Below are positions 6,248 to 45,569 of a DNA stretch of 64,000 bases, piece by piece. Made by a program: the position numbers and the translations under genes. Origin of the DNA: an uncultured Pseudomonadota bacterium (GTDB lineage Bacteria > Pseudomonadota > Alphaproteobacteria > RF32 > CAG-239). Within the stretch, counting starts at the first letter, position 1, and every line of letters starts with the position of its first letter. The stretch spans positions 423-64,422 of the forward strand of contig CASFLB010000002.1 of the NCBI GenBank assembly GCA_949295395.1, read 5' to 3'. The notes beneath the pieces are model-generated. The model was not told the origin of the DNA, did no database searches, and worked only from the letters and a program-made list of their open reading frames with translations.

Positions 6248-7168
6248 CTAAATCGCCTCGGCACCGGAAATAATCTCGGTCAATTCGGTAGTAATCGCCG
6301 ATTGACGAATACCATTATAGCGAAGCGTTAATTTTGAAATCATATCCGTCGCATTGCGAGTTGCATTATCCATCGAAGCCATACGCGCGCCCTGCTCTGA
6401 AGCCTGTGCCTGAACAAAAGTATTGAACATTTGCGCTTTAACCATCATGATTAACAGCCCGTCAAGTAAAACTTCTTTTTCAGGTTCATAATCATAGAAA
6501 GCGTCACCGGCCATATTAATTGGCATCGTTTGTTCATCGCTTACAACTTCAGGAAAAGAGGCCGGCAAAAACGGACGAGATTTTGTTTCGCGACTAATTG
6601 CGGAGATAAAAGAGCTGCTGACGATTTCAATTTTATCATACTCTCCGGCCTCAAAAGCTTTAAGGATAGGATGTAAAATCTCAACCGTTTCATCAAAATC
6701 AGCACCTTTGCGAGCAATTCCTTCATAAGATTGCACGATAAGTTCAGCATAACGACTTTTAAGAATATCGCGAGCTTTTTTACCAATACAAATAAGCTTA
6801 ACAGATTTTCCTTCGGCTTCAAGCTCTTTGATACGTTGACTAGCTGCCCGAGCAACATGAGCATTATAGCTGCCGCATAAACCTTTGTCAGAAGAAATAA
6901 CAATTAACAGATAGTTTTTATCGGCACCTGTTCCGGTTAACAAAGCCGGAACAGCAAAAGAAATTCCTTTTGTTTGTTCTTCTTGCTTCAAATCAAAGGC
7001 AACGCGCTGCGCGCCACGAAGCAAAGATTCGTAGTACGCAGAGCTTTTACCGATAAGACCTTGGGCACGACGCAATCCGGCGGCCGCTACCATCTTCATG
7101 GCTGAAGTAATTTTTTTGGTAGACTTAATCGCCTCAATGCGCGTCCTTAATTCTTTCAAGCCGGCCAT
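6248..7168 (-). CDS. atpG: F0F1 ATP synthase subunit gamma
   Basis: 306-aa ORF between atpA and atpD. N-terminal MAGLKELRTRIEAIKSTKKITSAMKMVAA is typical of the gamma subunit. Confidence 0.9.
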   Translation of the reverse strand: MAGLKELRTRIEAIKSTKKITSAMKMVAAAGLRRAQGLIGKSSAYYESLLRGAQRVAFDLKQEEQTKGISFAVPALLTGTGADKNYLLIVISSDKGLCGSYNAHVARAASQRIKELEAEGKSVKLICIGKKARDILKSRYAELIVQSYEGIARKGADFDETVEILHPILKAFEAGEYDKIEIVSSSFISAISRETKSRPFLPASFPEVVSDEQTMPINMAGDAFYDYEPEKEVLLDGLLIMMVKAQMFNTFVQAQASEQGARMASMDNATRNATDMISKLTLRYNGIRQSAITTELTEIISGAEAI

Positions 7169-7177
7169 GATTATTCC

Positions 7178-8728
7178 TTACGCTGCTTGTTCTTGGTTAG
7201 CAAATTCCTGAGTAAACTTTTCAAAGAAAGCGGTCAGCTTCTTATCAAGCTCATCAGAAATAACCTTGGTGTTGCGAATTTCTTCCAAAAACTCCGGATA
7301 GTTTGCTTTAACATCAGCCAAAGCCTGAGCTTCAAAAGCTTTAACATCAGCCACAGCTATCGAATCAAGGAAGCCGCGCACACCGGCAAAAATCGAAATG
7401 ACCTGATCTTCCACACTCATCGGATGATAAACCGGCTGTTTCAACAATTCAGTCAAACGCTCACCACGAGCCAAGAGCTGTTTTGTTGCCGGATCCAAAT
7501 CGGAAGCAAACTGAGCAAAGGCCGCCATTTCACGATATTGAGCCAAGTCAAGTTTGATTTTACCGGCCACCTGCTTCATGGCTTTAATCTGAGCGGCAGA
7601 ACCAACACGGCTAACAGAAATACCAACATTAACCGCCGGACGCACACCTTGATAAAACAGCGAGCTCTCCAAAAAGATTTGACCATCCGTAATTGAAATA
7701 ACGTTTGTCGGAATATAGGCCGAAACGTCACCGGCTTGGGTTTCAATAACCGGCAAAGCGGTCAAAGAACCAGCCCCGAGTTCGTCACTCATCTTAGCGG
7801 CACGTTCCAACAAACGAGAGTGCAGATAGAACACATCTCCCGGATAAGCCTCACGCCCTGGCGGACGACGAAGAAGCAAAGACATCTGACGATAAGCCGT
7901 CGCTTGCTTCGATAAGTCATCATAAAAGATGGTTGCATGCATTCCGTTATCGCGGAAATACTCACCCATTGCACAACCTGAATAAGGAGCAATATACTGC
8001 ATCGGTGCCGGATCAGAAGCCGTAGCGGCCACCACAATGGTATAATCCATGGCGCCATAATCTTTCAAGGTTTGAACAACGCGAGCCACGGTTGAGCGTT
8101 TTTGCCCAACGGCAACATAGATGCAATACATTTTATCTTTTTCAGACTTTGCGGCATCATTAATTTTTTTCTGATTAATAATGGTGTCTACGATAATAGA
8201 GGTTTTACCTGTCTGACGGTCACCGATGATTAATTCACGTTGTCCCCTTCCGATAGGAATAAGAGAGTCAACGATTTTCAAACCGGTCTGAACAGGTTCA
8301 TGAACACTACGGCGAGCAACAATACCCGGAGCTTTAATTTCAGAGTTGCTATACTCTTTGGCTTTAATGGCACCTTTGCCGTCTATGGGCTCACCCAAAG
8401 CATCGACCACACGCCCCAAGAGCTCTTTTCCAACCGGAACGCTCACGATTTTATCGGTACGTCTGACCGTATCGCCCTCTTTAATATCCTCATCGGAACC
8501 AAAGATAACAACACCGACATTATCCTCTTCCAAGTTAAGAGCCATACCTTTGACGCCGGATTCAAATTCAACCAATTCATTTGCCTGAACTTTATCCAAA
8601 CCATAGACATGGGCAATTCCGTCACCAACGGACAAAACCTTACCAACCTCAGCCACGTCAAGCGTCACTTTGGCATTAGTGATTCTATCCTTAATGATGG
8701 AAGAAATTTCGCTGGCAACTACAGACAT
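7178..8728 (-). CDS. atpA: F0F1 ATP synthase subunit alpha
   Basis: Walker [10 protein letters not shown]. Full-length alpha-subunit conservation. Confidence 0.95.
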
Positions 8729-9465: not shown

Positions 9466-11659
9466 TTACATAAAGGAGTAAGGATCAATATCCACCTCAA
9501 CACGCACCCGAGGAGAATGAGGCACGCGCGAAAGCCATGTCCGAATAACTTCTTGGATATTAATAGTTCGCGCGGTTTTGAGCAGCAAGCGAAAACGATA
9601 TTTTCCGCGCAGCATAAAGATTGGCGCCGGAGCCGGACCAAGCGTGGTAATCATATCGGTATTTGGGGCACATTTTCCAAGAGAAACGGCTGTTTTTTCA
9701 ACCATATCCTGATTATCTCCGGAAACAATCAGCGCCGCTAATTTTCCAAAAGGCGGCAACTTAAGCAACCGCCGGCTCTGCTTTTCAAGCTCAATAAAAG
9801 AAGAACGATTGTTGTCTAATAAGGCTTTCAAGACCGCATTTTCAGGATAAAGCGTTTGCAAATAGACCACACCTTTTTTAGCACCGCGACCGGCACGACC
9901 AGAAACCTGAGAAAGCAGCTGATAAGTCCGCTCTGAGGCGCGCAAGTCACTTCCCATCAACCCCAAATCCGCATCAACGATTCCCACCACGGTCAAACTC
10001 GGAAAATTATGCCCTTTGGCTAGAATTTGCGTTCCGATAAGAATGTCAATTTCATGATTTTCCATCTTGCGAATAACTTCCGAAACCTCGGAAAGAGTTG
10101 AGGTAATATCGCTGGACAAGATACCGATTCGCGCCATTGGAAAACGCTTTGAAACTTCTTCAGCAACCCGCTCCACCCCAGGGCCGCAAGCGGTAAGCCC
10201 CTCTTCAGAGCCGCAAGACGGACAACGAGAAGGAATTGATGTTGTATAACCACAATGGTGACAAATCAACGACTTTGTTTTGCGATGCTCGGTCAACCAA
10301 GAAGTACAGTTCGGACATTGGATTCGGTGCCCGCAATCACGACAGATTGTTAAAGGTGCATACCCGCGCCGATTCAAAAAGAGCATAGACTGCCCGCCGA
10401 TTTCAAGATTATCGGCCAAGGCTTTAACCAAAGTCGGTGATAACCATGCCACCGACATTTGCCCTTTATCATTCGGAAATTTTTGCGGCTTATCTTTTTT
10501 AAGATCGATAATTTTTACGGTCGGCAAAACCGCTTCGGCAAAACGAGAGGTCAATTTAACGCTGTCATATTTTCCCGATTCGACATTACAAATTGTTTCC
10601 AAATCCGGCGTCGCGGTCGATAAAATCAGTGGAATTTGCTCCATCTTGGCACGCACGACCGCCATATCGCGCCCTTGATAATTGACCACATCTTCTTGCT
10701 TGAACGACGCATCATGACTTTCATCAATAACAATCAAGCCCAAATCGGCATAAGGCAAAAACAAAGACGAGCGCGCTCCGACCACAACCTTAGCCCGATT
10801 CTCAATAATTCCTTTCCATGTATCGATTCTCTCGCGTGTACCTAAGGCCGAATGCCAGCAAGCCGGCTTAACGCCAAACCGCTTTTCACTTTTCAAAACG
10901 ACCAAGCCATTGCGTGGTTAAAGAGATTTCAGGCACCATGATTAAAACCTGCTTACCTTGCGCCAAGGCATCGGCCACGGCTGCAAAGTAAACCTCGGTC
11001 TTACCCGAACCGGTCACCCCGTCAAGCAAAGTCACCGAAAACCCCTGCCCGACTTTTGAACAAAGCAAATCAGCCGCATCTTGCTGCTCAGATGTCAAAT
11101 TCACTTTTGAAAAATCAGGATTCGGAGTACCAAAATCACGTTTCAGAGCCACCACCTCCGGCACCAACACACCGGCATCAATCATGGTTTTAATCACCAT
11201 TTGCCCAACACCGGCACCTTTGGCAATTTCTGCACGCGTGTAAGGATAATGCCGCAACAAATCCATCACTCTCCAGCGCGCATCAGAGTTTTTAAGCTTC
11301 GCCTCGGCTAAAGTTTTGCCCGAAAGTTTGTAAAGCGTCGTTGTTTTATCATCATCAAACACGGCTTTAACACTCAGCACCATTTTTAGCACCAAGCCCA
11401 AATAAGCCATATTATAGTTTGCCACAAAGGCCACAAACGTCATCAACGCGGCAGACAAAGGCGGCATATCAATTTTTGAGATAATCGGCTTAATTTTAGC
11501 CAGCGGCAAATCCGAATTTTTTCCAAGCTTCCAGACCACACCGACCAAAACTTCACGCCCAAACGACACACGAACCATCTCGCCGAGAGCCACATCGCCC
11601 TCGACTTGATAGTCAAACACATCATTAAACGGCAGCGGAAGCAAAACGCCGACAATCAT
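9466..11659 (-). pseudogene. priA: primosomal protein N' (PriA) split into two overlapping ORFs by a 7-bp tandem duplication
   Basis: ORF 10886..11737 has the PriA N-terminus (LLPLPFNDVFDYQVEGD, Walker A GVTGSGKTEVY) and ends ...QWLGRFEK*. ORF 9466..10905, in another frame, continues KRFGVKPACWHS..., then the Cys4 zinc region CRDCGH..CPNC..CHHCG..CPSCG. Sequence at about 10885-10905 (minus strand) reads cgt ttt GAAAAGTGAAAAG cgg; the intact reading RFEKRFG needs only one TGAAAAG copy. Confidence 0.75.
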
Positions 11660-11772
11660 GAAAAACCTCGCAAAAAAATTTATCAAAGTATAAAACAAAA
11701 GAAGCAAAGAACCAAGCGTAATCTCACTTTTCCGCAAACACTTTTTTAACCAAAACGAGATAGAATAAACTT

Positions 11773-19902: not shown

Positions 19903-21204
19903 ATGATATATTTATGGAAAACACTTTCTAAGCAAATAAGTCTTGCCCTTATTGGCGCAGCATTTTGTGTTATAAGCAGCACACCGGCTCAAGCCGATGT
20001 GTCATCAATTATGATTGACGCCCAAACCGGAGAAGTTTTATCGGCACAACGAGCCGATAAGTTAAGATATCCGGCCTCATTAACCAAATTGATGACCTTA
20101 TACATTGCCTTTGATGCACTAGAAAGAGGCATTATAAAGATGGATGATGAACTTCCCGTCTCACGCAAAGCGGCCAACCGCTCTCCCTCACGTCTAGGAC
20201 TTAAACCTGGCAGTAAAATCACGGTTAGAAAAATAATTGAAGCCCTAATTGTCAAATCAGCAAACGATTGCGCAACGGTATTAGCAGAAGGTCTCGGTTA
20301 TTCGGAAGAAAACTTTGCCAAAACGATGACCCTAGTAGCCAAAGAGCTGGGTATGAAGAACACAACATTTAAAAACGCCTCGGGACTTCCAAACAGACAA
20401 CAAAAAACCACCGCTCGCGACATTGCACTTTTAGCCGCAGCGATGTATCACCATTTTCCACAATATTATGATTTATTTTCTCTGCGCAAATTTTCCTATC
20501 AAGGCAAAACCTATTACACGCACAACCACATCTTAAAAAATTTTGAAGGAGCTGACGGCATGAAAACGGGTTTTACGAACGCCGCCGGCTATAATATTGT
20601 AACCTCAGCTCAACGAGATGGCCAACGCGTGATTGCCGTAACGATGGGACATAACACACTCAAAGCACGCGATAAAAAAGTTGCCCAAATGATGGAACAA
20701 GGTTTGACCAAACTAGCCTTAAACAGCAAAATGGAAAAAGCAAATCTTTATGCAGAAATCTTAAAAGAACAGAAAAAACCTCAAGACATCGAAAAACAAT
20801 TGGCTGACAACAAAACGACCAACCTTGACAATGACACGGAAGAAGAAAATGCTAATCCGCAAATTGAACAAGGAAGTGCAGACACGGAACAAACAATTGC
20901 GGCCATTGAAAAAGAGCTGGAAGCACAGCCCAGTTGGGACATACAAGTCGGAGCCTTTTCAAACTATGCCAAGGCTCGCCAGTATGCCCAAAAGATACAA
21001 ACCAAACAATTCAAAGATTGCAAAGAATGCGAGATAAAAGTTGAAGCCGCCGAAAGCGCCTCCGCCATTATCTATCGAGCCAAAATCATTGGTTTTGAAA
21101 AAAATGATGCTGATAAAGCATGTAAGCGTTTGAAAAATGCAAGCATATCATGTATAGTTGTTAAGAACGATTCGGAAACAACTGTAACAATGGCATCGAG
21201 GTAA
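19903..21204 (+). CDS. dacA: D-alanyl-D-alanine carboxypeptidase (S11, PBP5/6-like) with C-terminal SPOR domain
   Basis: Signal peptide. SLTKLMT (SxxK), SAND (SxN) and KTGFT (KTG) motifs. C-terminal SWDIQVGAFSNYAKARQYAQKIQ...ISCIVVK SPOR-like region. Confidence 0.85.
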   Translation: MIYLWKTLSKQISLALIGAAFCVISSTPAQADVSSIMIDAQTGEVLSAQRADKLRYPASLTKLMTLYIAFDALERGIIKMDDELPVSRKAANRSPSRLGLKPGSKITVRKIIEALIVKSANDCATVLAEGLGYSEENFAKTMTLVAKELGMKNTTFKNASGLPNRQQKTTARDIALLAAAMYHHFPQYYDLFSLRKFSYQGKTYYTHNHILKNFEGADGMKTGFTNAAGYNIVTSAQRDGQRVIAVTMGHNTLKARDKKVAQMMEQGLTKLALNSKMEKANLYAEILKEQKKPQDIEKQLADNKTTNLDNDTEEENANPQIEQGSADTEQTIAAIEKELEAQPSWDIQVGAFSNYAKARQYAQKIQTKQFKDCKECEIKVEAAESASAIIYRAKIIGFEKNDADKACKRLKNASISCIVVKNDSETTVTMASR

Positions 21205-22016
21205 TGACACTTAAAATACCGGCACACAAAGGCCACATAATCGTTGTAAGCAACGAAAAAGGCGGAACAGGCAAATCCACAATATCAATGCATTTAGCCA
21301 TAACCTTATTACAAGAAGGATATAGCGTAGCTGTTGTTGACTTAGATGGTCGACAAGGCACCTTAAGCAAATACATTGAAAACCGCAAAAAATACTGTCG
21401 CGTCAGAAACATTGACTTACCCACCCCGGCTTTATTTACCTATGCCCCACAAGAAGATATTGACTTAATTGAGGCCAGCAAAGAAAATATTAACAACCGC
21501 ATTGAAGAATTAAGCCGAGAATACGATGCAGTTATTATAGACACACCGGGAACAAAGAACTACTTATTTGAAGAAGCGCACAAACATGCGGACACTTTAA
21601 TCACCCCAATGAGCGACAGCTTGATTGATTTAAACGTCATGGCCGACATAGATTTTGCTTCTTCGACCATAGGAAAACCCGGACATTACGCCAACTTTAT
21701 TTGGGAAGTAAAAAAGAAGATGGCCGCGGAGAACCGAGGCTATTTAAACTGGATTGTTGTCGGAAACAAAACCTCAACCTACAATTCCAAGAACAAAAAT
21801 TTAGTTTTCGACTATCTTGAAAAACTCGGAAAATTATTTGGTTTTCGCTTCACCCCCGGCCTAAAAGACCGCATTATTTACAAAGAGCTGTTTTTAGTCG
21901 GCTTAACGGTTTTAGACATGCAACATCCAAAACTTCAGCTCAAAATGACCTTATCGCATTTAGCGGCCAAAAGGGAAGTCAAATCCATAGCCGAATTTAT
22001 ATGTCCGGAAGAATAG
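21204..22016 (+). CDS. mipZ: division-plane positioning ATPase MipZ (ParA/MinD family)
   Basis: Deviant Walker A VSNEKGGTGKST. Collinear with the Caulobacter MipZ motifs from memory (VAVVDLDGRQGT, IIDTPG, GFRFTPGLKDRIIYKELF, SHLAAKREV). Confidence 0.85.
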   Translation: MTLKIPAHKGHIIVVSNEKGGTGKSTISMHLAITLLQEGYSVAVVDLDGRQGTLSKYIENRKKYCRVRNIDLPTPALFTYAPQEDIDLIEASKENINNRIEELSREYDAVIIDTPGTKNYLFEEAHKHADTLITPMSDSLIDLNVMADIDFASSTIGKPGHYANFIWEVKKKMAAENRGYLNWIVVGNKTSTYNSKNKNLVFDYLEKLGKLFGFRFTPGLKDRIIYKELFLVGLTVLDMQHPKLQLKMTLSHLAAKREVKSIAEFICPEE

Positions 22017-31602: not shown

Positions 31603-32916
31603 ATGAAAGTAGGAAAAGTAAGCAACAGAAAAATATTAAAACAAACAGCGCTTTTGTTGCTATGTGTTGGCGCCGGCTGGTACCTCAAAGCCAAGATGAC
31701 ACCATCAATGAGCGGCATGGCCGGAATGAACCGAGAAGCCTTTGTTTTAATCCAAGGCCTTGAGGAAGCCGACATCAGCGCCAAACAAAGCTACATCGGC
31801 CACGTAGAGGCCATCAAAAGCGTTAATATCATACCGCAAGTCAGCGGTTATGTTGAAAAAGTTCTCTTTCAAGAAGGAAGCTTTGTTGAAGAAGGCGATA
31901 TTCTTTTTATCATCGAACAAAAGAAATACCAAGCAACCGTAGACTTAAGAAAAGCGGAACTCGAGAGTGCTAAAGCCAATTTAGTTCGCGCCGAAAGAGA
32001 CTTTAAACGTCAAGCCCAACTTTCAAAACAAAATTACGCCTCAAAAGCCACATTTGATACGGCCGAGAGCAGCTATCTCCAAGCCAAAGCTGCCGTAGCA
32101 CAAGCAGAGGCCAACTTAGAATTAGCTGAAATTGATTTGGGCTATACCGTTATAAAAGCACCAATCAGCGGCTATATAGGAAAAGCCTTGGTTACGGAAG
32201 GAAACTACGTCAGCTCCTCTGCCCAAAACTTAGCCCGCATCGTACAAACCAATCCGATTCGCGTTGCTTTTTCAGTATCGGATAAAGAATATTTAACAAG
32301 TAAGCTTCTCAGACAACAAAACGGCGAAGAAAGTATCCGCAGTGAAATTATTCTGCCGAATGGGCAAACGATTGAAAATCATTTCAAATCCCGTTTTACA
32401 GATAATGAAATCAACACAGATACAGCAACAATCGCCGTCTACGCCGAATATAAAAACGACGAAGGATTATTAATCCCCGGAAACTATGTTGACGTCAAGA
32501 TAGGACCTAAAGAAACTCAAACAAGTTTGCTTGTTCCTCAATCTGCCGTTGCCCAAGATGAACACGGAAACTATGTTATGGTCGTCAAAGATGGCATAGC
32601 AGAAGAACGTCGTGTTACTTTGGGCGAAACAATTGGCACCAAACAGGTTGTTAAAAGCGGCTTAACCAAAGATGACAAAGTTATCATTCAAGGTTTGCAA
32701 AAAGCCAGCAACGGAGCTAAGGTTAACGCTCAACTGATTGTCGAAGAAAAACTTCCGACTATCAGCAGCGATGATGAACCCACCAAAGTTGAAGAAAATC
32801 ATCCGGTAGCAAGAACACTCCAAGCCCAAGAAGTTGATGTTGATTCTCCTATCATAAATAACACCGTTGGCTTTGAGCAAGAAACACTAGAAGAACAATC
32901 GGAAGTGGAGGAATAA
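31603..32916 (+). CDS. RND efflux membrane fusion protein (AcrA/MexA-like)
   Basis: N-terminal anchor, HlyD-like coiled-coil and barrel-sandwich segments. 437 aa. Directly upstream of the RND permease. Confidence 0.85.
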   Translation: MKVGKVSNRKILKQTALLLLCVGAGWYLKAKMTPSMSGMAGMNREAFVLIQGLEEADISAKQSYIGHVEAIKSVNIIPQVSGYVEKVLFQEGSFVEEGDILFIIEQKKYQATVDLRKAELESAKANLVRAERDFKRQAQLSKQNYASKATFDTAESSYLQAKAAVAQAEANLELAEIDLGYTVIKAPISGYIGKALVTEGNYVSSSAQNLARIVQTNPIRVAFSVSDKEYLTSKLLRQQNGEESIRSEIILPNGQTIENHFKSRFTDNEINTDTATIAVYAEYKNDEGLLIPGNYVDVKIGPKETQTSLLVPQSAVAQDEHGNYVMVVKDGIAEERRVTLGETIGTKQVVKSGLTKDDKVIIQGLQKASNGAKVNAQLIVEEKLPTISSDDEPTKVEENHPVARTLQAQEVDVDSPIINNTVGFEQETLEEQSEVEE

Positions 32917-32922
32917 GAATAA

Positions 32923-35900
32923 ATGTTTTCAAGAATATTCATTGAACGCCCACGTCTGGCAATGGTCATTTCCATTGTCTTGACCCTGGCGGGAGCAATC
33001 TCTGTATTCTCACTCCCGATTTCATTATATCCGGAAATCACCCCGCCGATGGTAACGGTATCCGCCAACTACCCCGGCGCCAGTGCCGACGTTTTGGCTA
33101 AAACAGTCGGTATTCCGATTGAACAAGAAATCAATGGTGTTGAAGACATGTTATACATGGACTCAACATCACAAAATAATGGCTCATATTCTTTGTCTGT
33201 TTCTTTTGAAGTTGGAACAGATCCGGATATGGCACAAGTTAAGGTGCAAAACCGCGTTCAACAAGCTACCCCGAAACTTCCGAGCGAAGTTCAAAGACAA
33301 GGTATCAGCGTCACCCGTCGTTCGTCCGATATTTTAGGCTTTTTGAGTGCACGTTCACCGAAAGGAACTCATGACAGAAAATTTATCAGTAACTATGTTG
33401 AAAACAACATCAAAAACAACTTGGCTCGTATTAACGGTGTTGGTGAAGTTAGCGTACACGCTTCTCCTCTGAGCATGCGTGTTTGGTTAAATGCCAACAA
33501 ACTCAGCGCCTTAAACTTGCCGGTAGCAAATGTCATTGCCGCGATAGAAGGCCAAAACTATCAACCGTCTTTAGGTAGTATTGGTGCCATGCCGGGTGAC
33601 GGCGACCAACAAATGGTCTATACCCTACAAACGCAAGGGCGTATTAACGAGGCTGAAGAATTCGGAAACATCATTGTCCGCACAGCCGAAGATGGCGGCT
33701 TAGTCAAACTAAAAGACGTTGCCAAAGTTGAAATCGGAACAGAAAGCTATAGTGTTGAATCAACCCTTGATGGAGGACCATCCGTTGCAATCTCACTAAA
33801 TCTTTCATCGGGTGCGAACGCTTTGGAAACCATGGAAGCCGTAAAACAAGAATTAAAGAGAATGGAACAACTCTATCCGGAAGACTTCCAAGTTGATATC
33901 ACCTATGATGCAACCTTGTACATTGTCTCATCAATTGAAGAAGTTATCTTCACCTTGGTTTTGACCTTTGCATTGGTTATCGGCGTATGCTACCTGTTTT
34001 TACAAGACTGGCGCGCGACGTTGGTTCCATCATTAACCATTCCGGTATCATTATTTGCCACCTTTGCCGTCATGATGGCCTTAGGCTACAGCATCAACCT
34101 GCTCACCTTGTTCGGTTTGGTTTTGGCAATTGGTTTGGTGGTTGATGACGCGATTGTGGTTGTTGAACGTGTTTTGTATTTAATGGAAACAGAAAACTTA
34201 ACCCCGAAAGAAGCAACGATTAAAGCCATGGAACAAGTTTCCAGCGCCGTTGTCGCTACGACATTGGTGTTGTTAGCTATTTTCGTTCCGGTCGGCTTCA
34301 TGGGTGGTATTACCGGTAAAATTTATCAACAATTTGCGGTTACGATTTCAACATCAGTTGCTTTCTCAGCCTTAAATGCGTTGACCTTATCTCCGGCATT
34401 ATGTGCAACCTTACTCCGCCCGATAAAAGAAGTAACATCAGGCCCCTTGCACATATTCAATATCATTTTGAACAAAGCCCGCAATCGCTATATTGGTGTT
34501 ATAGCAATTATCGCACGAAAAGTCAGCGTTATTGCGCTTATTCTCGGGATGTTAATTCTTGGAAACTATGCATTTCTGAAAACCAGCCAAACCTCATTCA
34601 TTCCAAATGAAGACCAAGGCGTTATCTTGGCCAACTTCCAATTACCGGAAGGAGCATCATTTGAAAGAACGAGAGGACTGATAAAGAAACTCTATCCGAC
34701 CATTAAAGCCGAACCTGGCGTCAGCAATGTCATGTCGATTATCGGCTTCAGCTTGATTGGCGGTAGCGGTGAAAACGTAGCCTTCTCCGTCATTACACTA
34801 GATCCATGGAACAAGCGTAAAGACGAAGAACTTTATTCAACCAACATCTTGAACCGTATTAAGGCTAAGATAGCCAACACACCGGAAGCAGAAATCAACA
34901 TGTTTGAATTTCCGGCCATTCCGGGCTTAGGTACAAGCGGTGGTATGGATTATCGTTTGCAGTCATTAGATAGCTCAGACGCAAATGAGTTATATAGCAC
35001 GATGCAAGGCTTTTTAGGACGGTTAAACTCCTCACCGGCCATTAACTACGCCTACTCGACTTATACCTCACAAACGCCGCACATAAATATTGAAATCGAG
35101 AAAGAAAAAGCCGAAAGTATGGGTATTTCCATCGGAGATATTTATACCATTCTGCAAAACTACCTCGGTTCAACTTATGTAAACGACGTAAACTTCGGAA
35201 CACAGGTCAATAAGGTTATTATCCAATCTGATTGGCCGTTCCGTAAAGATGTTGATTCAATTAAGAACTTATATGTTCAAAACAAAAACGGCGACATGGT
35301 TCCTCTGGGAACAGTTGTAAAATTGGATAAAGTTTTAGCCCCGAGAACAATCGAGCGTTATAACCAATATCCGGCAGCAACAATCACAGCCGTTCAAAGT
35401 CAGAACATGAGCTCAGGACAAGCCATGGCTGAGGTTGAAGAGTTATCAAAACTCTTGCCCAAAGGCTACAGCTACCAGTGGTCAGGAATGAGCTTCCAAG
35501 AAAAAGGAACTGAAGGACAAATCGGTTACCTGATTATCTTGGCTATTACCTTTGGTTATTTGTTCTTGGTTGCACAATATGAAAGCTGGGCAATGCCTCT
35601 GCCGGTATTGACATCAATCACCGTCGCAATGTTAGGTGCCTTTGCCGGATTGTTTATCACCGGATTACCCTTGAGTATTTACGCTCAATTAGGCTTAATC
35701 TTGTTGGTCGGTTTGGCCAGTAAGAACGCTATTTTGATTGTTGAGTTCTCTAAAGAAGAACGTGAAAGAGGCTCCTCAATCGTCAAAGCGGCCACGACCG
35801 GTACCAAAGAACGTTTCCGTGCGGTCTTGATGACAGCCTTCACCTTCATTTTGGGTGTATGGCCGATGATTGTCGCCACGGGCGCCGGTGCCTCAAGCCG

Positions 35901-36024
35901 TATTGCAATCGGTGTTCCGGTATTCTACGGAATGTTGCTTGGAACCGCCGGCGGCTTACTTGTAATTCCGCTACTTTATGTTTTGTTCGAAACAATTCGC
36001 GAAAAAGTAAGTAAGCGTAAATAA
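32923..36024 (+). CDS. RND multidrug efflux permease (AcrB/MexB-like)
   Basis: 1033 aa, 12-TM architecture with large periplasmic loops. N-terminal [10 protein letters not shown]... Confidence 0.95.
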
Positions 36025-36044
36025 CAATCGCAAAGACTAAAAAA

Positions 36045-36108
36045 ATACCTCACAGAATGAACTGTCCAACTTTCGGGGGACAGTTCAAGAACGTGAGGTA
36101 TTTTTTTT
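36045..36108 (+). terminator. long hairpin rho-independent terminator after the RND operon
   Basis: ATACCTCAC...GTGAGGTAT outer stem and TGAACTGTCC...GGACAGTTCA inner stem, followed by a T8 tract. Confidence 0.6.
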
Positions 36109-36157
36109 ATATAAAATAAAGAAATTTATGCTATAATAAATAAAAAAAGGAAGAAAA

Positions 36158-38176
36158 ATGAACGATGCAATATTAAAACAAGAATATCAAGACCAAAAAC
36201 AAAAAGAGCAGTACTGCAAAATCGGAAAAGAAACTATCATCATCCCCATAAGTTATAAGGGGAACAAAGACCTCTTTTCTGATGACCTCTTTGACTATGA
36301 AGAAGAAGCCCAAAAATACAGAAAGCATAATCAAAACAGCGAACCGAATCAAAAACTTGATGCGGAAATGCTCCAAACCGGTGACCTCACATTTCTTCCA
36401 CCTTTCGACCTTGTTAAAGCCGGTTGTTCTCAGCAAGAAATCATCAAAAAAGCCACACAAAGAGCCCTAAGAAAATATAAAGCGGCGCTAAAAAAAATAA
36501 ATCGCCATAATGAAAAAGAATATCCAGCCTCACCTGTTTTGGCAAAAATGGATAAAGAAACTTTAGAAAATTTAGATAAAAAGCATCAACGCTACTGCGC
36601 CGATAAGCTGCTGCAAAAATTTGGGCAAGCCGCAAAGTTCAGCACACAACAAATAGCCCAAATAAGTGCCGGTGTTGCAGGAATTTTACCGGTTATCGCC
36701 TATCATTTTATGGATAAAAAATTTCATTTTGCCAATTCCAAAACCAAAAACACTATTGATAAAAAAGTTGTTCCTTATATATGTAAAGGAGCCTTAAAAA
36801 GCATCATTCCATTAGCCATGTACAGCGGAGCAAAATTCGGCTTAAATAAAAGCGCAGAAACAAAAGAAAATAATAAAGAAACACCCAATATAACCATTGT
36901 ACAAAGCGCAGAAGAAACAGCTCCGAAAGAAAGCTCACAGCTTAGTAAAAAATATCAAATAAATGATCTAAAAAGTTTTCATCAACTATATAGTGATGCG
37001 CTCAATTTTATGGCTTTATCAATGTTTCCAACTGAAGTTTTGGTTAACGAAGCTTATACAGATAATGGCAAAACAATTAACACCATTGGCCTTGGAAGTT
37101 TTTGGTTTCCCAAAGACGGCAATCCCCAAAGCAGTGAATGGATTTTAACCTCAGATTATGTTAAAAAGAAAAAAATAAAACTCACAGGACCTCAAGCCTT
37201 TGCCTTAACAGATGGTTGGTACCGCCACCGCGAAAACGGAAGAATCTATAAAGATATGTACAAAAGATTAAAAGGATGTGAACTAAAAGCTCATGAATTT
37301 GCCGCCATTGCCACGGTCATGTATAACAATGAAGTCAACGGCAAAGAACTCTGCGACTATATTAAAGATAACTACAAAGACCCCTTAAAATGCGCAGCCA
37401 AAATTATGGATTTAAAACCACAAAATTCACGTTTTAATGATGGCATTCTCAAACGACACGCCCATGAAGCTCTCATCTACTTAAACTGCAATAACTATGC
37501 AGAAAAGATACCTTATTTTATTGTTAAGAAAGGAACAAATTCCAAAGGAAAAACATATTACGTTACCTCCGTAACTCAGTTAGCACCGCAAGACTGCCAT
37601 CCCATGCAACAAGGTCTTCAAAAAGGCAGCATCCAAGAAGCCGAATTATTAGCACAAAAAATAGAAAATTATCGCTGCAAAGGAGGGAAAACCGTCTATA
37701 AAATTGCCGACCAAAACAACGTAAGCCACTTATACGATTATATCGGAAAAGACGTTAGTTTTTACGAAATGTCGCGGATAAACCTTGCCGATAACAGCTA
37801 TCAACAAGCCTTACAATATTACCAAAATAAAGACTACGAAAAAGCATTATCATGTTTTAATCAAATGAGGGAAAATGGTTTTGACGGCGCGGATATTCAT
37901 AATGATATGGCCATCACCTACTATAACATGGGTGAATATGAAAACTGCATAAAAGAATGCCAAGAGGTTTTAAAAACCGGAGAAGAAGAACTTTACCCAG
38001 CCGCAAATTACAACGCCGGTAAAGCTTATGAAAAACTTGGCAACAAAGAAAAAGCTTTACGCAATTTTGAACTGGCGGCACAAAGAAATCCTGAAGAAAA
38101 AGCCTATCAAAATGCTCTCAAACGCTTTACTAATTTAGCAAATAATTTTTCCAACCAAAGCCAAACCAGAGGGTAA
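36158..38176 (+). CDS. multidomain protein: N-terminal unknown region, central T4/P22-type (GH24) lysozyme-like domain, C-terminal TPR repeats
   Basis: Residues about 290-400: MFPTEVLVNEAYTDNGKTINTIGLGS aligns to the P22/T4 lysozyme motif EG.RLKAY.D..G..TIG.GH (Glu-8aa-Asp-5aa-Thr). LKAHEFAAIATVMYNNEVNG aligns to LNQNQYDALCSLIFNIG. C-terminal TPR-like repeats (YQQALQYYQNKDYEKALSCF..., AITYYNMGEYENCIKE..., AGKAYEKLGNKEKALRNF...). No signal peptide. Confidence 0.7.
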   Translation: MNDAILKQEYQDQKQKEQYCKIGKETIIIPISYKGNKDLFSDDLFDYEEEAQKYRKHNQNSEPNQKLDAEMLQTGDLTFLPPFDLVKAGCSQQEIIKKATQRALRKYKAALKKINRHNEKEYPASPVLAKMDKETLENLDKKHQRYCADKLLQKFGQAAKFSTQQIAQISAGVAGILPVIAYHFMDKKFHFANSKTKNTIDKKVVPYICKGALKSIIPLAMYSGAKFGLNKSAETKENNKETPNITIVQSAEETAPKESSQLSKKYQINDLKSFHQLYSDALNFMALSMFPTEVLVNEAYTDNGKTINTIGLGSFWFPKDGNPQSSEWILTSDYVKKKKIKLTGPQAFALTDGWYRHRENGRIYKDMYKRLKGCELKAHEFAAIATVMYNNEVNGKELCDYIKDNYKDPLKCAAKIMDLKPQNSRFNDGILKRHAHEALIYLNCNNYAEKIPYFIVKKGTNSKGKTYYVTSVTQLAPQDCHPMQQGLQKGSIQEAELLAQKIENYRCKGGKTVYKIADQNNVSHLYDYIGKDVSFYEMSRINLADNSYQQALQYYQNKDYEKALSCFNQMRENGFDGADIHNDMAITYYNMGEYENCIKECQEVLKTGEEELYPAANYNAGKAYEKLGNKEKALRNFELAAQRNPEEKAYQNALKRFTNLANNFSNQSQTRG

Positions 38177-38255
38177 GTAAAAATTGCTTGACAATCGCGC
38201 CCCGAATGATACAAACAAGCTGAAAACAATATTATTAATTTAACACAATATCATT

Positions 38256-38816
38256 ATGGAAAAAAAAGATGTTATATCAGCAATTGAAAAACTGATGAAG
38301 GAAAATGGACTAACTCAAGAAGAACTCATCACTTTCTGGAACACCCCTCAAGAGGCTCCCGAAAGCCAAGAAGAGCCAAACAAAGAGTACCCTTTTGAAG
38401 TCATGTATGATGATGGAACGCGCTCTTGGTCTCCGCAAAAAGATAAAAAGCCTTGGGGGATAATCTTCTATGGTAGTGTAATCTGCTTAAAAAACTTAGA
38501 AGAAAAAATGCCTTGGAAAAAAGCTGTTGACTATTGCCAACAGATAACAATCGGTAAGATGAAAGGCTCTGCCGGCTCAAAAGATTTTTGGGAAATTCTT
38601 AAAATTCAAGCGCCAAAGAAAATAAATGAGCTCAACGAGTTCATAAGCAAGCTCGGCGGAGAAAAACTCGAAGGTTCTTATTGGACAAGTGATCAAAACG
38701 ATCATAACTGGGCTTACTTTGTTTTATTCTCAAACAGCCCTAAGAGACCAAGCATGATATCAGCATACTTCAAAAGCTTAAAAATAGCGGTTCGTCCGAT
38801 TTTATCCTTAACATAA
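38256..38816 (+). CDS. DUF1566-like small protein (186 aa), paralog of next gene
   Basis: YPFEVMYDDGTRSWSPQKDKKPWGIIF, MPWKKAVDYCQQI, SYWTSDQNDHNWAYFVLF. These resemble Lcl-C-terminal/DUF1566 motifs (W..A..yC; yWSS; aWyv.F), recalled from memory. No signal peptide. Confidence 0.55.
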   Translation: MEKKDVISAIEKLMKENGLTQEELITFWNTPQEAPESQEEPNKEYPFEVMYDDGTRSWSPQKDKKPWGIIFYGSVICLKNLEEKMPWKKAVDYCQQITIGKMKGSAGSKDFWEILKIQAPKKINELNEFISKLGGEKLEGSYWTSDQNDHNWAYFVLFSNSPKRPSMISAYFKSLKIAVRPILSLT

Positions 38817-38829
38817 AAAATATATCATT

Positions 38830-39270
38830 ATGAACGAAAAAGAAAAATATCCGTTTGAAGTTCTGTTCACGGATGGAAGTCGCTCATGGCTACCTAAAGA
38901 GGACTCAACACCTTGGGGCATCATCTTTGAAAACGAGGCGGTTGCCCTCCAAACGCCACTAATGGGATTGGACTTTTATCACGCCCAACATTATTGTAGC
39001 AAGATAAAAGTAGGAAACTTTGGCGCGACCTGTGGAGAAAAAGCCTTTTGGGAAAAATTTTCACAACTAAACCGAAGCGCCATAAACAAGATGAACGAGT
39101 TTATTCTAAGCCTAAACGGAATTCCTATAGAAAAAGATTATTGGACCGCTGATTCCGTCAAAAGAGAAAGAACCAAAGCCTGGTATATGTCTTTTGATGA
39201 ACCAGAGATTTTTAACGCTGACAAAAAATATAAAAAGCATGGCGTTAGAGGTGTAATAAAAATTATGTAA
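38830..39270 (+). CDS. DUF1566-like small protein (146 aa), paralog of previous gene
   Basis: YPFEVLFTDGSRSWLPKEDSTPWGIIF, HAQHYCSKI, DYWTADS...KAWYMSFD, C-terminal HGVRGVIKI (compare the VRCVR ending). No signal peptide. Confidence 0.55.
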   Translation: MNEKEKYPFEVLFTDGSRSWLPKEDSTPWGIIFENEAVALQTPLMGLDFYHAQHYCSKIKVGNFGATCGEKAFWEKFSQLNRSAINKMNEFILSLNGIPIEKDYWTADSVKRERTKAWYMSFDEPEIFNADKKYKKHGVRGVIKIM

Positions 39271-39277
39271 ACAAAAA

Positions 39278-39310
39278 AATTCAGCTCCTATTCAAAGGCG
39301 CTGAATTTTT
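39278..39310 (+). terminator. hairpin terminator after the DUF1566-like pair
   Basis: AATTCAGC...GCTGAATT stem with an internal CCT/AGG helix, followed by TTTTT. Confidence 0.5.
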
Positions 39311-39688
39311 TGTATCAATAAGATATCAGAATCCCGTAGCCCCTAATCGACCATGACACACAATTTATGGCAGGCTTTGTTTTATTTTATAATTCAAACA
39401 AAAAGAGCTAAAAAATGGGAATAAAAAAAGATAAATTGGGGAGAATGAGTCGAGTAGTAGGCGTCAAGGGCAAAAGTACCGAAGCGTACACAAAAGTACG
39501 TGAGGAAACTTTTGCCCCCAGACAACGCACTAATCGACCATTATACAAACTTTTCTACGACTTAAAACTGGGGATAATAGTACAGATAGAGGCATTTCTA
39601 GCTGCGAGAAAAATTTTAGTGTACAGAGTAGTACATGAATTTTTCGAGACAGCGTAAAATGCCTCTAGATGTGCTGTTATACACAGTT

Positions 39689-42199
39689 TTAAAGGGTTGG
39701 AGCTATCTCCTCCACCTCATAACACTCAATAAAATCGCCAACTTGAATGTCGTTGTAGTTTTCAAAACTCATACCACATTCATAACCGGATTTAACTTCA
39801 CGAACGTCTTCTTTAAAGCGTTTGAGTTGAGCAAGAGCACCGTCATGAATAACAACGTTATCACGCAACAGGCGAACCTTTGCTCCACGCTTAACAAAGC
39901 CCTCGGTAACCATACAACCGCCGACTTTACCGACACCGGTAATATTAAAGACATTGCGAATTTCAGCATAACCGATAATCTTTTCTTTAAGCTCAGGCGT
40001 TAACATACCCTCCAGCGCTTTCTTGATATCATCAACCACATCATAGATGATGGAATAATAACGAATATCAACACCATCTTGACGGGCAAGATCACGCGCA
40101 TGAGGAATGGCACGAACGTTAAATCCGATAATAAAGGCATTTGAAGCTTTAGCCAAAGTAACATCTGAATCTGAAATCGGACCAACAGCCGAATGCAGAA
40201 TCTGAACACTAACTTCTTCGTTAGAAAGCTTTTTAATTGTTCCCTCAATAGCTTCGATAGAACCTTGAACATCAGCCTTGATAATAACCGGAAGATGTTT
40301 AACTTCACCGGACTTAATTTTATCAAGCATTTGCTCCATAGCCGACTTCGCACTCTTAACTAACTTAGCATCACGTTCTTTACGAATACGATAATTGGTA
40401 ACTTCTTTAGCTTGCGCCTCGTCTTTAACAATAACAAAATCATCACCGGCGGCCGGCGTTCCTTGTAATCCAAGGATTTCAACCGGAGTTGCCGGACCAG
40501 CTTCGGTCATCTTTTTACCATGCTCATTAAACATCGCACGAATATGACCCCATTCTTTTCCGGCAATACAAATATCACCGACATGAAGCGTTCCATTCTG
40601 AACCAAAACCGTTGCAACAGAACCGCGACCTTTTTCCATTTTAGCTTCAATGACCGCGCCTTGAGCCAAACGGTTTGGATTAGCCTTCAAATCAAGGATT
40701 TCAGCTTGCAACAAAATAGCCTCAACCAACTTGTCGATATTAATTCTCTTCTTAGCAGAAACTTCAGCACAAAGATATTCACCACCCATTTCTTCGACGG
40801 CAATTCCATGTTGCAATAAAGCGGTTTTAACCTTCATCGGATCAGCCCCCGGCAAATCGATTTTGTTAATAGCAACCACAATTGGAACTTCAGCCGCCTG
40901 AGCGTGACGAATAGCCTCAACGGTTTGCGGCATAATACCATCATTAGCGGCAACAACCAAAACCACGATATCCGTAACTTTAGCACCGCGAGCACGCATT
41001 TCAGAAAAAGCTTCGTGTCCCGGCGTATCAATAAAGGTAATTTTTTTACCACCGGCTACTTCAATCTGATAAGCACCAATATGCTGGGTAATACCACCAG
41101 CCTCACGAGCTGCCACATTGGTTTCACGCAAAGCATCAAGCAACGATGTTTTACCATGGTCAACGTGTCCCATAACCGTAACCACCGGTGCTCTTGGTTG
41201 TAAGTCATCAGCCGTATCTTGCGGACCGGTTAAACCTTGTTCAACATCACTATCAGCCACACGTTTAACCTTATGTCCAAACTCCTCAACCACAATCTGA
41301 GCGGTATCAGCATCAATCGGTTGGTTAATCGTAGCCATAACCCCAAGAGCCATCAACTTCTTAATAACCTCGGCACTTTTTTCAGCCATACGGTTAGCCA
41401 ACTCCTGAACCGTAATAATTTCAGGGATGACAACTTCTTTAATAATTTTTTCAGCTGGCTGTTGTGGGGCTTGCTGAGGTTTAGGTTGTTTTTTCTTAAA
41501 GCGACGACGAGGAGCTCCATACCCATAATCATCATCGTCATCATCCATACTTCCCATAACATTATGGAGATTAACTTTATTGTTACGGCGTTGCGGCTCA
41601 AAACTGCGCTTCATAATTTTTTTGCGTTCTTGTTCAAAGACCTCTTCTTTGCTTAAAGATTTACCGCTTTTTTGAGAACGATAAGCATTATCATCATCGG
41701 CATCATCGTCATCATCAAAATCGCGTGCTTTTTTATCCTTCGCTTTTGAAACAGCACGTTCTTCCGCAGCCGCAGATTTTTCAGGATTTACAGACGAATC
41801 GACCGAAGTCTCAACCTTTTGGGATTGTTTAGCTTCCGCCTTTTGCGAACTTTGTTCCTTTTCTTTTTCCTGTTCTTTGGCCAGTTGTTCAGCCTTCAAG
41901 GTCTCTTCCTGTTCACGACGAAGCTGACGCTGACGTTCTTTTTCTTCTTCCTCAAGACGGCGTTTAGCCTCATGCTCTTTTGCCTCAGCAATCAACTTAA
42001 GCTTAGCGGCCGTAGCATCATCAATCTGCACTTTAGGCTCTTCTTTTTTAGTGGCAGAAATAATTCTTTTTTTGCGCACCTCGACCTGTACGACTTTTTT
42101 GCCGTCGCTATGGCTCTTAGCGGCATCACCCAAATTTTTAAGGGTAAGGGTTGATTTCCCTGATAATGTCAGTCTGCTTTTTGCACTATCTTCTGTCAT
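39689..42199 (-). CDS. infB: translation initiation factor IF-2
   Basis: 836 aa. G-domain motifs [24 protein letters not shown] and NKID. Charged Lys/Glu-rich N-terminal region. Confidence 0.95.
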
Positions 42200-45068: not shown

Positions 45069-45569
45069 TCATGGCAAAGAAATAACCGGCCGCACCTTAA
45101 ACAGGGGATTATCATCAAGAGCACAGCTTCTCACCTGCCATTTTCCACTAACACCAAAGCCATAAAGCTTATCCTTTTGTTCATACCAGTAAGGAGCATC
45201 AAAAACAATAGGCTTAAAACCGACAAGTTCCGCCGTTTTATTAAAATCATCCAACTGATCTGAAAAACAAATCAATGACTTCCAAAAAACCTTTTTTCCA
45301 AGAGAAATTCGATAAGTTTTAAATTTTTGTTTTTGGCAGTATCTCCGCGCCGACGATAAAAGCATTTTTTGCGGAGCTTCATCTAAAACGGCAAACTTTC
45401 CAAAAACAATAGCCAAAGGCTCAACACCTTCCAAAGGAACTAGTGATCGTTTTCCGTTTTGATAAAGAACCGGCAAAGGAAATTGAATATTATCCATAAA
45501 AATAAGTTTTAGAATTATAAATAAAAAAATACGAATGACTAAGCCGAGATATAAGGCACAATTAGACAA
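45069..45569 (-). CDS. hypothetical protein (about 142-166 aa)
   Basis: ORF-track ORF. Probable start at MDNIQFPLPVLYQNGKRSL. No recognisable family. Confidence 0.45.
   Translation of the reverse strand: MSNCALYLGLVIRIFLFIILKLIFMDNIQFPLPVLYQNGKRSLVPLEGVEPLAIVFGKFAVLDEAPQKMLLSSARRYCQKQKFKTYRISLGKKVFWKSLICFSDQLDDFNKTAELVGFKPIVFDAPYWYEQKDKLYGFGVSGKWQVRSCALDDNPLFKVRPVISLP

Follow-up and report, generated by a model that had tools for sequence, protein, structure and literature searches.

The region described here lies within a 64,000-nt stretch of DNA (hereafter the window; positions 423 to 64,422 of contig CASFLB010000002.1) from an uncultured alphaproteobacterium of the CAG-239 lineage, and contains three open reading frames (ORFs) on the forward strand: a gene for a protein of 672 amino acids (aa), referred to as the large protein, and two smaller genes, sm186 and sm146 (Table 1). 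The middle part of the large protein falls below the Pfam threshold for lysozymes of the GH24 family, but by its predicted fold and its catalytic residues it is a highly diverged member of this family. With a probability of roughly 55%, the large protein may be regarded as a GH24 autolysin that is tethered to the membrane, is catalytically competent and attacks the peptidoglycan of its own cell, with TPR repeats for targeting or regulation and an N-terminal module (N-module) as a link to the cytoplasm. The two downstream genes, to judge from their distribution in relatives, are not functional partners of the lysozyme. In the following, L001-L037 are the compared loci of relatives, and P-numbers denote proteins of the large-protein family.

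The GH24 core of the large protein

Searches with the full-length large protein in Pfam gave no match to the GH24 family PF00959 even at E<=1, and only the C-terminal TPR region was recognised (TPR_2, 43 bits); NCBIfam and PDB sequences gave TPR matches or nothing, and PHROGs none. The isolated core (core-only alignment A2, residues 258-540) matched PF00959 with 13.6 bits (E 0.088) over profile positions 4-124/125, which is below the gathering cutoff of 22.3 bits. PF00959 was the sole Pfam family matched by several core members (5 of 22, best E 0.0064), and in a comparison of the core profile with PDB sequences the GH24 endolysin 7m5i (E 0.033) and a lysozyme were ranked at the top. Alignment by hhalign with T4 lysozyme paired E293, D302 and T309 with E11, D20 and T26, at a non-significant E of 0.13.

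Among 38 aligned homologues, with identities down to 32%, no variation is seen at residues T292, E293, Y300, D302, N308, T309 and G311. The spacing of the catalytic residues in the large protein, E-X8-D-X6-T, is one residue longer than that of the canonical GH24 motif, E-X8-D-X5-T (PMC9239132).

Fold searches with the AlphaFold2 (AF2) model of the full-length protein (predicted local distance difference test, pLDDT, 84.9) were dominated by TPR proteins. The core-only model (pLDDT 92.5; predicted template modelling score, pTM, 0.92) has the two-lobed lysozyme fold with a beta-hairpin N-lobe. In the structure comparison, the figures of which carry no unit label, this model scored 11.7 against the endolysin of phage FAHEc1 (7m5i; 151 residues aligned, 22% identity), 11.3 against PHAb11, 10.7 against P22 lysozyme, 10.0 against DLP12 RrrD, 9.7 against a fungal GH24 muramidase, 8-9.5 against T4 lysozyme fusions, 9.3 against the muramidase domain of Asticcacaulis SpmX and 6.7 against Brucella SagA. 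The preliminary description of this DNA had called the lysozyme core unmistakable; the GH24 fold and the Glu/Asp/Thr set are indeed intact, but for sequence tools the core is not unmistakable, remaining at 13.6 of the required 22.3 bits. The core may well still have N-acetylmuramidase activity, for which its low dN/dS (see below) speaks indirectly.

Further evidence comes from sister proteins found by an exhaustive hidden Markov model (HMM) search of representative sequences. These proteins (P0136, P0150, P0151, P0157 and P0164) have their N-terminal 230-270 residues in common with the large protein and carry a canonical PF00959 domain at the equivalent position, with 50-77 bits. The query of this search was the full-length alignment A1, so that its result bears on the size of the family and on its modular relatives, not on the link between the core and canonical GH24. 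By BLASTP, the large protein and P0136 form one continuous alignment (aa 5-449, E 9e-44), in which most of the score comes from the shared N-module; aa 289-414 of P0136 are PF00959 with 70.8 bits. The core-only comparison is weak (hhalign with P0164, E 0.001, probability 21%), and no bridging sequences with PF00959 turned up when the core profile was used for an indexed search.

Several lysozymes of the P22/lambdoid type (P22 gp19, DLP12 RrrD, FAHEc1 7m5i; PF00959) are structurally close to the core but only 14-22% identical with it, and in the large protein the domain is part of a host protein of 672 aa that also comprises the N-module, the anchor, the accessory subdomain and TPR and has no phage context. 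It is very improbable that its gene is a lysis gene left behind by a decayed prophage and lacking a current cellular function, although the closest structures are phage endolysins and the gene is pseudogenised in one lineage (L022/L023). No phage genes occur near it at any locus, the family comprises at least 90 clusters at 50% identity with stable synteny, and host-type modules (TPR, N-module, M23) have been gained. The ratios of nonsynonymous to synonymous substitution rates (dN/dS), calculated for the window against the close relatives L001, L028 and L026, point in the same direction: the value for the GH24 core is 0.029, compared with 0.024-0.066 for neighbouring housekeeping genes, showing that the catalytic core is constrained like a housekeeping enzyme. 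The other parts of the large protein gave 0.067 (accessory subdomain), 0.092 (TPR), 0.154 (N-domain) and 0.25 (anchor and linker). Selection and synteny together effectively rule out a prophage relic.

Three proteins of the family (P0131, P0158 and P0165) have the divergent core and TPR fused to a LytM-type Peptidase_M23 domain, at the N- or C-terminal side. Peptidase_M23 is a family of peptidoglycan endopeptidases; these fusions support a cell-wall function, and, going by their domain content, the three proteins would be two-headed cell-wall hydrolases.

These fusions and the invariant residues also bear on a comparison with SpmX of Caulobacterales (PDB 6H9D), a domesticated GH24 muramidase with a remodelled cleft, in which D20 is replaced by L or R, T26 and Y18 are not conserved, the muramidase domain is N-terminal, two transmembrane segments are C-terminal and TPR is absent (10.1101/418723). 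A similar co-option, in which the GH24 domain of the large protein would have been kept mainly for peptidoglycan binding or localisation within a membrane scaffold, and TPR and the N-domain would recruit proteins, e.g. for polarity or division-site organisation, with no bulk or local wall cutting, is possible but doubtful. The loss of D20, T26 and Y18 in SpmX was read as attenuation, whereas all four catalytic positions are invariant in the large-protein family; the domain order is reversed (N-domain, hydrophobic helices, GH24 and TPR in the large protein), and the M23 fusions indicate an enzymatic role on peptidoglycan. SpmX is thus an evolutionary parallel as a domesticated lysozyme (10.1101/418723), but the large protein is no member of the SpmX family, and the occurrence of its family in a different clade suggests that domestication was probably independent. 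The large-protein family looks like a second alphaproteobacterial case in which a phage lysozyme has become a permanent host gene, here with intact catalytic residues and covalently linked to a TPR adaptor and a presumably cytoplasmic module. The architecture as a whole is undescribed.

Table 1. Features of the studied region and its surroundings, with positions in the window and, for parts of the large protein, residue numbers
Feature	Position	Strand	Residues	Description
Left boundary hairpin	36040-36108			Nested ATACCTCAC...TGAACTGTCC-loop-GGACAGTTCA...GTGAGGTAT, with an A-run and a T-run on the flanks; read directly; probably an intrinsic terminator for both directions, following the RND pump gene; left end of the unit
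Large gene	36158-38176	+	1-672	N-module, hydrophobic helices, divergent GH24, accessory subdomain and TPR; from the ORF listing
N-terminal domain	36158-36607	+	1-150	Folded alpha/beta, pLDDT ~95; part of the lineage-specific N-module
Two helices	36653-36841	+	~166-184 and 204-228	Ala/Gly-rich, weakly hydrophobic, Lys-rich loop between them; candidate membrane anchor
Linker			229-262	Low-confidence, flexible in the AF2 model
GH24 core	36944-37492	+	263-445	Divergent T4/P22-type lysozyme core
Catalytic motif	37028-37096	+		PTEVLVNEAYTDNGKTINTIGLG; E293, Y300, D302 and T309 equivalent to E11, Y18, D20 and T26 of T4 lysozyme
Accessory subdomain	37493-37777	+	446-540	Alpha/beta; conserved NSKG..YYVTSVTQL motif, family-specific
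TPR domain	37778-38176	+	541-672	About 3 repeats and a capping helix
sm186	38256-38816	+		186 aa; sub-threshold DUF1566/Lcl_C-like core, N-terminal helical extension, no signal peptide
sm146	38830-39270	+		146 aa; paralog of sm186
Right boundary hairpin	39274-39311			AAAAAATTCAGC..GCTGAATTTTTT, with an A-run and a T-run on the flanks; read directly; probable bidirectional terminator, right end of the unit
Palindromic module A	39440-39554			Nested hairpins; minimum free energy (MFE) -43.7 kcal/mol, z -5.7
Palindromic module B	39563-39688			Hairpin of ~126 nt abutting the infB stop codon; MFE -61.9 kcal/mol, z -10.9
Third small paralog	45069-45497	-		142 aa from an internal ATG; between lptG and rimP

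Architecture, anchoring and possible role

The arrangement proposed in the preliminary description, with the core between an N-terminal region that possibly contains a hydrophobic helix and C-terminal TPR repeats, is borne out. Neither the N-terminal domain, which is presumably cytoplasmic (no family match in Pfam for aa 1-150), nor the accessory subdomain matches a known family. The TPR domain was recognised by Pfam TPR models above threshold and has a helical-repeat fold; its structural neighbours include YbgF, LpoP and BamD, and weak matches to YbgF and LapB were obtained in NCBIfam, although general TPR similarity does not identify the partner.

The localisation of the catalytic domain is suggested by shorter members of the family (495-575 aa), which lack the N-domain and have one Gly/Ala/Thr-rich hydrophobic segment with a net charge of +3 to +7 before it and ~0 after it. 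This is the charge pattern of an N-in/C-out signal anchor, so that the GH24-TPR part would be periplasmic. The helices of the large protein align with this single clear signal anchor of the short forms. Two cysteines, C399 and C412, which are family-specific and invariant in the family, are located on adjacent helices of the model and are compatible with a periplasmic disulfide.

The large protein may well descend from a GH24 lysozyme of the phage type that became fixed in the chromosome of this lineage. Its anchor would tether it to the inner membrane with the GH24-TPR part on the periplasmic side, where the core, as a dedicated autolysin, would cut nearby glycan strands. The TPR domain might bind an envelope partner that sets the place or time of cutting, and the N-module might couple the autolysin to something in the cytoplasm. 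In Brucella abortus SagA, a transmembrane helix and a linker hold the enzyme at the inner membrane, which was proposed to limit its cutting to a local zone (PMC8334348). SagA and Salmonella Typhi TtsA, both secretion-associated autolysins, are, like the large protein, T4-lysozyme-type Glu/Asp/Thr muramidases of a Gram-negative host, but SagA is structurally farther from the large protein than other GH24 enzymes and has other extra domains, and the large protein is no member of the SagA family. The concept of a TPR module that targets or regulates a peptidoglycan enzyme is common to NlpI, LpoA/LpoP, CpoB/YbgF and BamD; these are separate proteins, whereas here TPR is covalently fused to the hydrolase.

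Several observations weigh against such an autolysin. Its periplasmic location, its activity and the role of its TPR domain are what we infer, and neither the TPR domain nor the N-domain could be assigned a partner. The helices of the long forms, including the large protein, are weak (Kyte-Doolittle 1.2-1.5; additive Hessa dG 6-9), too weak for a firm topology call, and if both or neither of them spans the membrane, the GH24 domain would be cytoplasmic. In two independent samples (L022, positions 6720-7918, and L023), the lysozyme-TPR gene has an out-of-frame deletion of ~800 nt, corresponding to aa ~150-406, by which the anchor and the catalytic lobe are lost while the downstream small gene is intact; the large gene is therefore dispensable in at least one lineage. 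Finally, the N- and C-terminal halves of these proteins have discordant histories at one locus, as described below, which is unusual for a plain housekeeping enzyme.

Another possible explanation of the anchor is that the large protein is an autolysin of the signal-anchor-release (SAR) type, inactive while tethered and set free into the periplasm by membrane depolarisation or by a partner, leading to programmed lysis, e.g. with the release of DNA, vesicles or particles. The anchors of the family are Gly/Ala-rich (e.g. VVLGVTATIGAGALYSVFS and IAQISAGVAGILPVIAYHF) with basic residues in front, a SAR-like composition that agrees with the published criteria (PMC9239132); SAR anchors are often missed by hydropathy programs (PMC9239132). 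SAR endolysins (P1 Lyz, phage 21 R, Mu gp22) have in common with the large protein the GH24 "true lysozyme" triad and a weakly hydrophobic Gly/Ala/Thr-rich anchor after basic residues, the class of lambdoid/P22-type GH24 endolysins to which the closest structures belong includes SAR endolysins, and the invariant Cys pair, together with a neighbouring DsbD in one sub-clade, recalls the disulfide-regulated P1 Lyz. However, the transmembrane domain of SAR endolysins is at the extreme N-terminus, after 2-3 basic residues and next to the catalytic domain, whereas here the segment begins only at aa 15-70 (short forms) or aa 166 (large protein), is located 60-100 residues before E293, and in the long forms follows a domain of 165 aa. 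The large gene is chromosomal and conserved, without a lysis-cassette context: no holin, pinholin, releasin or spanin genes were found at any locus examined. A self-lysing enzyme also fits poorly with strong purifying selection throughout the clade, and SAR-type lysis is considered unlikely.

The first homologue search retrieved 63 homologues of the large protein, and the exhaustive search ~93 clusters at the 50% identity level (E<=1e-30). All homologues originate from uncultured Alphaproteobacteria of human-gut, rumen and other animal-gut metagenomes, and, since Pfam does not recognise the core, their annotation is "hypothetical" or "TPR protein" throughout. A definition of the family would therefore lead to better annotation of gut and rumen Alphaproteobacteria, and, as far as can be deduced from sequence, the family would supply a diverged and probably active scaffold of a Gram-negative muramidase; it does not open any long-standing question.

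The synteny of the large gene is stable within sub-clades and different between them. The gene follows an RND operon in the window, L001/L006, L022 and L028; in L004, L008, L009 and L010 it stands between fabZ on one side and genes for DsbD, CDP-alcohol phosphatidyltransferase, ApbE and Rnf on the other; a LemA-like gene and a gene for a 343-aa protein are located upstream of it in L016-L018; and in L033-L035 it is found among ordinary housekeeping neighbours. No phage, secretion-system or mobile-element genes occur beside it within ~7-10 kb at ~20 loci. From its gene order, the large gene is a vertically inherited, ordinary chromosomal gene with no recent insertion. A role as a flagellum-dedicated wall hydrolase, considered because FliR and FlhB are encoded 9 kb upstream, was rejected, since no flagellar linkage exists at other loci. 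In several rumen metagenome-assembled genomes, a second copy of the family is located right after the TPR-type gene (L013, 7781-10725; L015, 977-3960; L034, 7001-9942); these tandem copies have ~433 aa, are 35-37% identical over the core and apparently lack TPR.

At one locus, different C-terminal modules (C-modules) are found behind similar N-modules. P0016, a TPR-type protein encoded in L010, and P0136, which has the canonical GH24 domain, are ~90% identical over residues 1-235 and ~22% thereafter, and P0136 occupies the exact locus of the TPR type in L004, L008, L009 and L010. The flanking proteins of L010 and L036 are 67-87% identical, indicating that these loci are from different species. 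For three canonical-type proteins (P0136, P0149 and P0157), the closest N-module is that of a TPR-type protein (86%, 71% and 57% identity; the counterparts compared at the locus were P0016, P0024 and P0018), whereas the nearest canonical-type N-module is only ~38% identical, and the canonical C-modules are 43-63% identical mutually. Thus, the N-modules follow the lineage and the C-modules do not, which may be the result of either repeated exchange of the C-module or homogenisation of the N-module between paralogs. Only two types of C-module are involved, both GH24, and the exchange is between species, not strains. Two GH24 modules exchanged behind one lineage-specific N-module are an unusual evolutionary pattern for a cell-wall enzyme. 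The canonical form at the shared locus (L036/L037) has ~540 aa, lacks TPR and mostly carries Cys at the D20 position.

A protein of 221-225 aa with hydrophobic segments at both ends is encoded convergently to the lysozyme gene at this locus (L004, 12004-12669; L036, 8655-9332; L010, 2024-2686; all on the minus strand), at the end of the DsbD operon and with a 4-nt overlap with the lysozyme stop codon. It has no Pfam match and is absent in L008 and L009. Where present, it is kept (79-87%) whichever C-module is found, and no module-specific partner gene is evident beside either type.

Different C-modules behind related N-modules resemble the pattern of polymorphic toxins, but only two GH24 types occur here. 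It might be supposed that the N-domain and the helices form an undescribed delivery or release platform, behind which alternative GH24 modules are swapped at a fixed locus (a "polymorphic muramidase"), for use as an interbacterial weapon or for SAR-like self-lysis, with the fast-evolving DUF1566-like small proteins as possible cytoplasmic partners or antidotes in the lineage of the window. This is kept in view because of the discordant histories of the N- and C-modules and the SAR-like anchors, and is regarded as improbable.

The small paralogous proteins

The proteins sm186 and sm146 are paralogs, as had been supposed (34% identity, E 5e-30). The sm146 gene starts 13 nt after sm186, with an orthologue in the same position in L028-L030, and this short gap makes it probable that the two genes are co-transcribed. 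With the third paralog between lptG and rimP, members of the family are found on both sides of the rimP-nusA-infB operon; the position of this paralog is kept in L026/L027. A longer ORF over it, started by TTG and extending to 45569, is probably spurious. The small-protein family forms 17 clusters among 5.8 billion sequences, is unannotated and is confined to this bacterial group.

The assignment of the small proteins to DUF1566 in the preliminary description can be kept as a weak resemblance: the matches to PF07603 (DUF1566/Lcl_C) have 15.6 and 18.1 bits, below the gathering cutoff of 34.9 bits. Lcl_C/DUF1566 is the commonest Pfam match in the family (6 of 17 members, best E 6.3e-5), always sub-threshold, and the small proteins share with it the typical ...YW(T/S)..-...-VR-x-(I/V) C-terminal pattern; no match was obtained with PDB sequences. 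Many DUF1566 proteins are exported, whereas in the three small proteins, which begin with MEKKDVISAIEKLMKENG..., MNEKEKYPFEV... and MDNIQFPLPV..., no signal peptide, lipobox or hydrophobic N-terminus was seen by direct reading, no dedicated predictor being used.

Between the window and its close relatives, the small proteins have 57-70% amino acid identity, compared with 92-99% for their neighbours, and their dN/dS values are 0.17-0.20 (sm186), 0.15 (sm146) and 0.32 (the third paralog, the highest of the three). They are fast-evolving and yet under purifying selection.

Small genes are found beside the large gene only in the closest relatives (L001/L006, L022 and L028-L030) and in the window: L028-L030 have both copies, L001 one, and L022 one, next to the pseudogene. 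Elsewhere they are solitary, following an RND and an HD-domain gene in L031/L032, where the lysozyme gene is lacking, or located between ferritin and aldolase genes in L024. At 13 more distant loci (among L004 and L007-L019), no small gene was found within ~10 kb of the large gene. These positions identify the three-gene "cassette" as local synteny, not a conserved module. The small proteins form a scattered, fast-evolving family of DUF1566-like paralogs that are probably cytoplasmic.

In the preliminary description, the large protein was compared to contact-dependent or secretion-system muramidase effectors, and the small proteins were placed in the position of immunity or cognate partners. 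In such a system, the large protein would be a secretion- or contact-delivered muramidase or a polymorphic toxin, and one or both small proteins would protect from it or assist it. The proposed partnership does not agree with the distribution described above, since across genomes the small genes and the large gene are not found together consistently, an outcome that the preliminary description itself had named as speaking against it. The compartment also speaks against it: without a signal peptide or lipobox, the small proteins would be kept out of the periplasm, in which immunity to a muramidase has to be exerted. The effector itself is as little supported by its own domains and neighbours, as Pfam and NCBIfam revealed no PAAR, VgrG, Rhs, LXG or other trafficking domain, secretion genes are absent within ~10 kb at ~20 loci (in the window, flagellar FliR/FlhB are the only secretion loci), and PADLOC detected no known defence system. 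In the other sub-clade, the downstream membrane protein of 221-225 aa is the same regardless of the C-module; moreover, the C-modules are only two, both GH24 and swapped between species, and the core is under selection of the housekeeping level. For these reasons the effector reading is not supported, and a delivered muramidase with immunity partners has a low probability.

Chromosomal surroundings of the region

The operon before the large gene (TetR, RND adaptor and RND pump) has its end at 36024, and the small genes are followed, on the minus strand, by infB (39689-42199), an ylxR-like gene, nusA and rimP. The G+C content decreases from ~0.43 in the neighbours to 0.35-0.39 over the three genes. 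Hairpins are present at both ends of the unit, in agreement with the preliminary description, in which terminators were placed on both sides; they were found and judged probable terminators by direct reading of the sequence, and a consensus terminator scan detected neither of them.

It had also been proposed that the three genes were inserted between the RND operon and infB, with the disruption of a conserved linkage. The linkage is indeed broken, as rbfA-truB-rpsO-pnp do not follow infB in the window, but gene insertion is not the cause: in close relatives the same order of RND, lysozyme and small genes is found, and the block abuts fabZ-lpxD-bamA, not infB, in some cases with a gene for a 187-192-aa protein on the minus strand in between. 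The genes fabZ-lpxD-bamA are absent from the entire window.

The 377-nt spacer between the right terminator and the infB stop codon contains two palindromic non-coding modules (Table 1). Module A is 93% identical with its copy in L001, which is above the identity of the adjacent coding genes. Copies of these modules occur in L001 and L022, where they precede fabZ, and in L026, where they follow infB; for module B, which sits at the rearrangement junction, these are the copies of L022 and L026. An RNA gene in the spacer was considered and rejected, as there is no Rfam match and folding is equal on both strands. Because both modules fold equally well on either strand, they are read as palindromic repeats, and they look like REP/MITE-like elements (repetitive extragenic palindromes or miniature inverted-repeat transposable elements) at a rearrangement junction. 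The simplest reading is that the block was placed next to infB by chromosomal rearrangement at dispersed palindromic repeats. Two listed ORFs of 80 aa and 122 aa (39415-39657 and 39635-40003), which overlie the modules, are probably spurious.

Synonymous divergence (dS) from L028 is 0.11 for the RND pump and jumps to 0.8-1.9 over the three-gene region. A recombination hotspot in this region was considered and rejected: according to the identity profile, the jump in dS is due to a tract inside the RND pump, and the large gene is at background divergence. This tract (window ~32500-35300) has 98-100% nucleotide identity with L028 against a background of ~85%, which indicates recent homologous recombination between lineages in the efflux operon.

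The remaining window encodes ATP synthase, PriA, NagZ, a DacC-like carboxypeptidase with a SPOR domain, MipZ, FliR, FlhB, HdaA, LptG, HslVU and AddAB, and, judged by these genes, is core chromosome; one tRNA-His is the sole Rfam or ARAGORN match. PriA is encoded in two overlapping ORFs on the minus strand (9466-10905 and 10886-11737), one with the N-terminal 3'BD/ResIII/DEAD part and the other with the Helicase_C/Zn-ribbon/PriA_C part, suggesting a frameshift, which may be real or an assembly error. The gene for MipZ (Pfam E 4e-82; 21204-22016, plus strand) adjoins that of the D,D-carboxypeptidase with the C-terminal SPOR domain (19903-21204, plus strand), and this arrangement indicates a division-site system of the Caulobacter type in the gut alphaproteobacterium from which the window originates.

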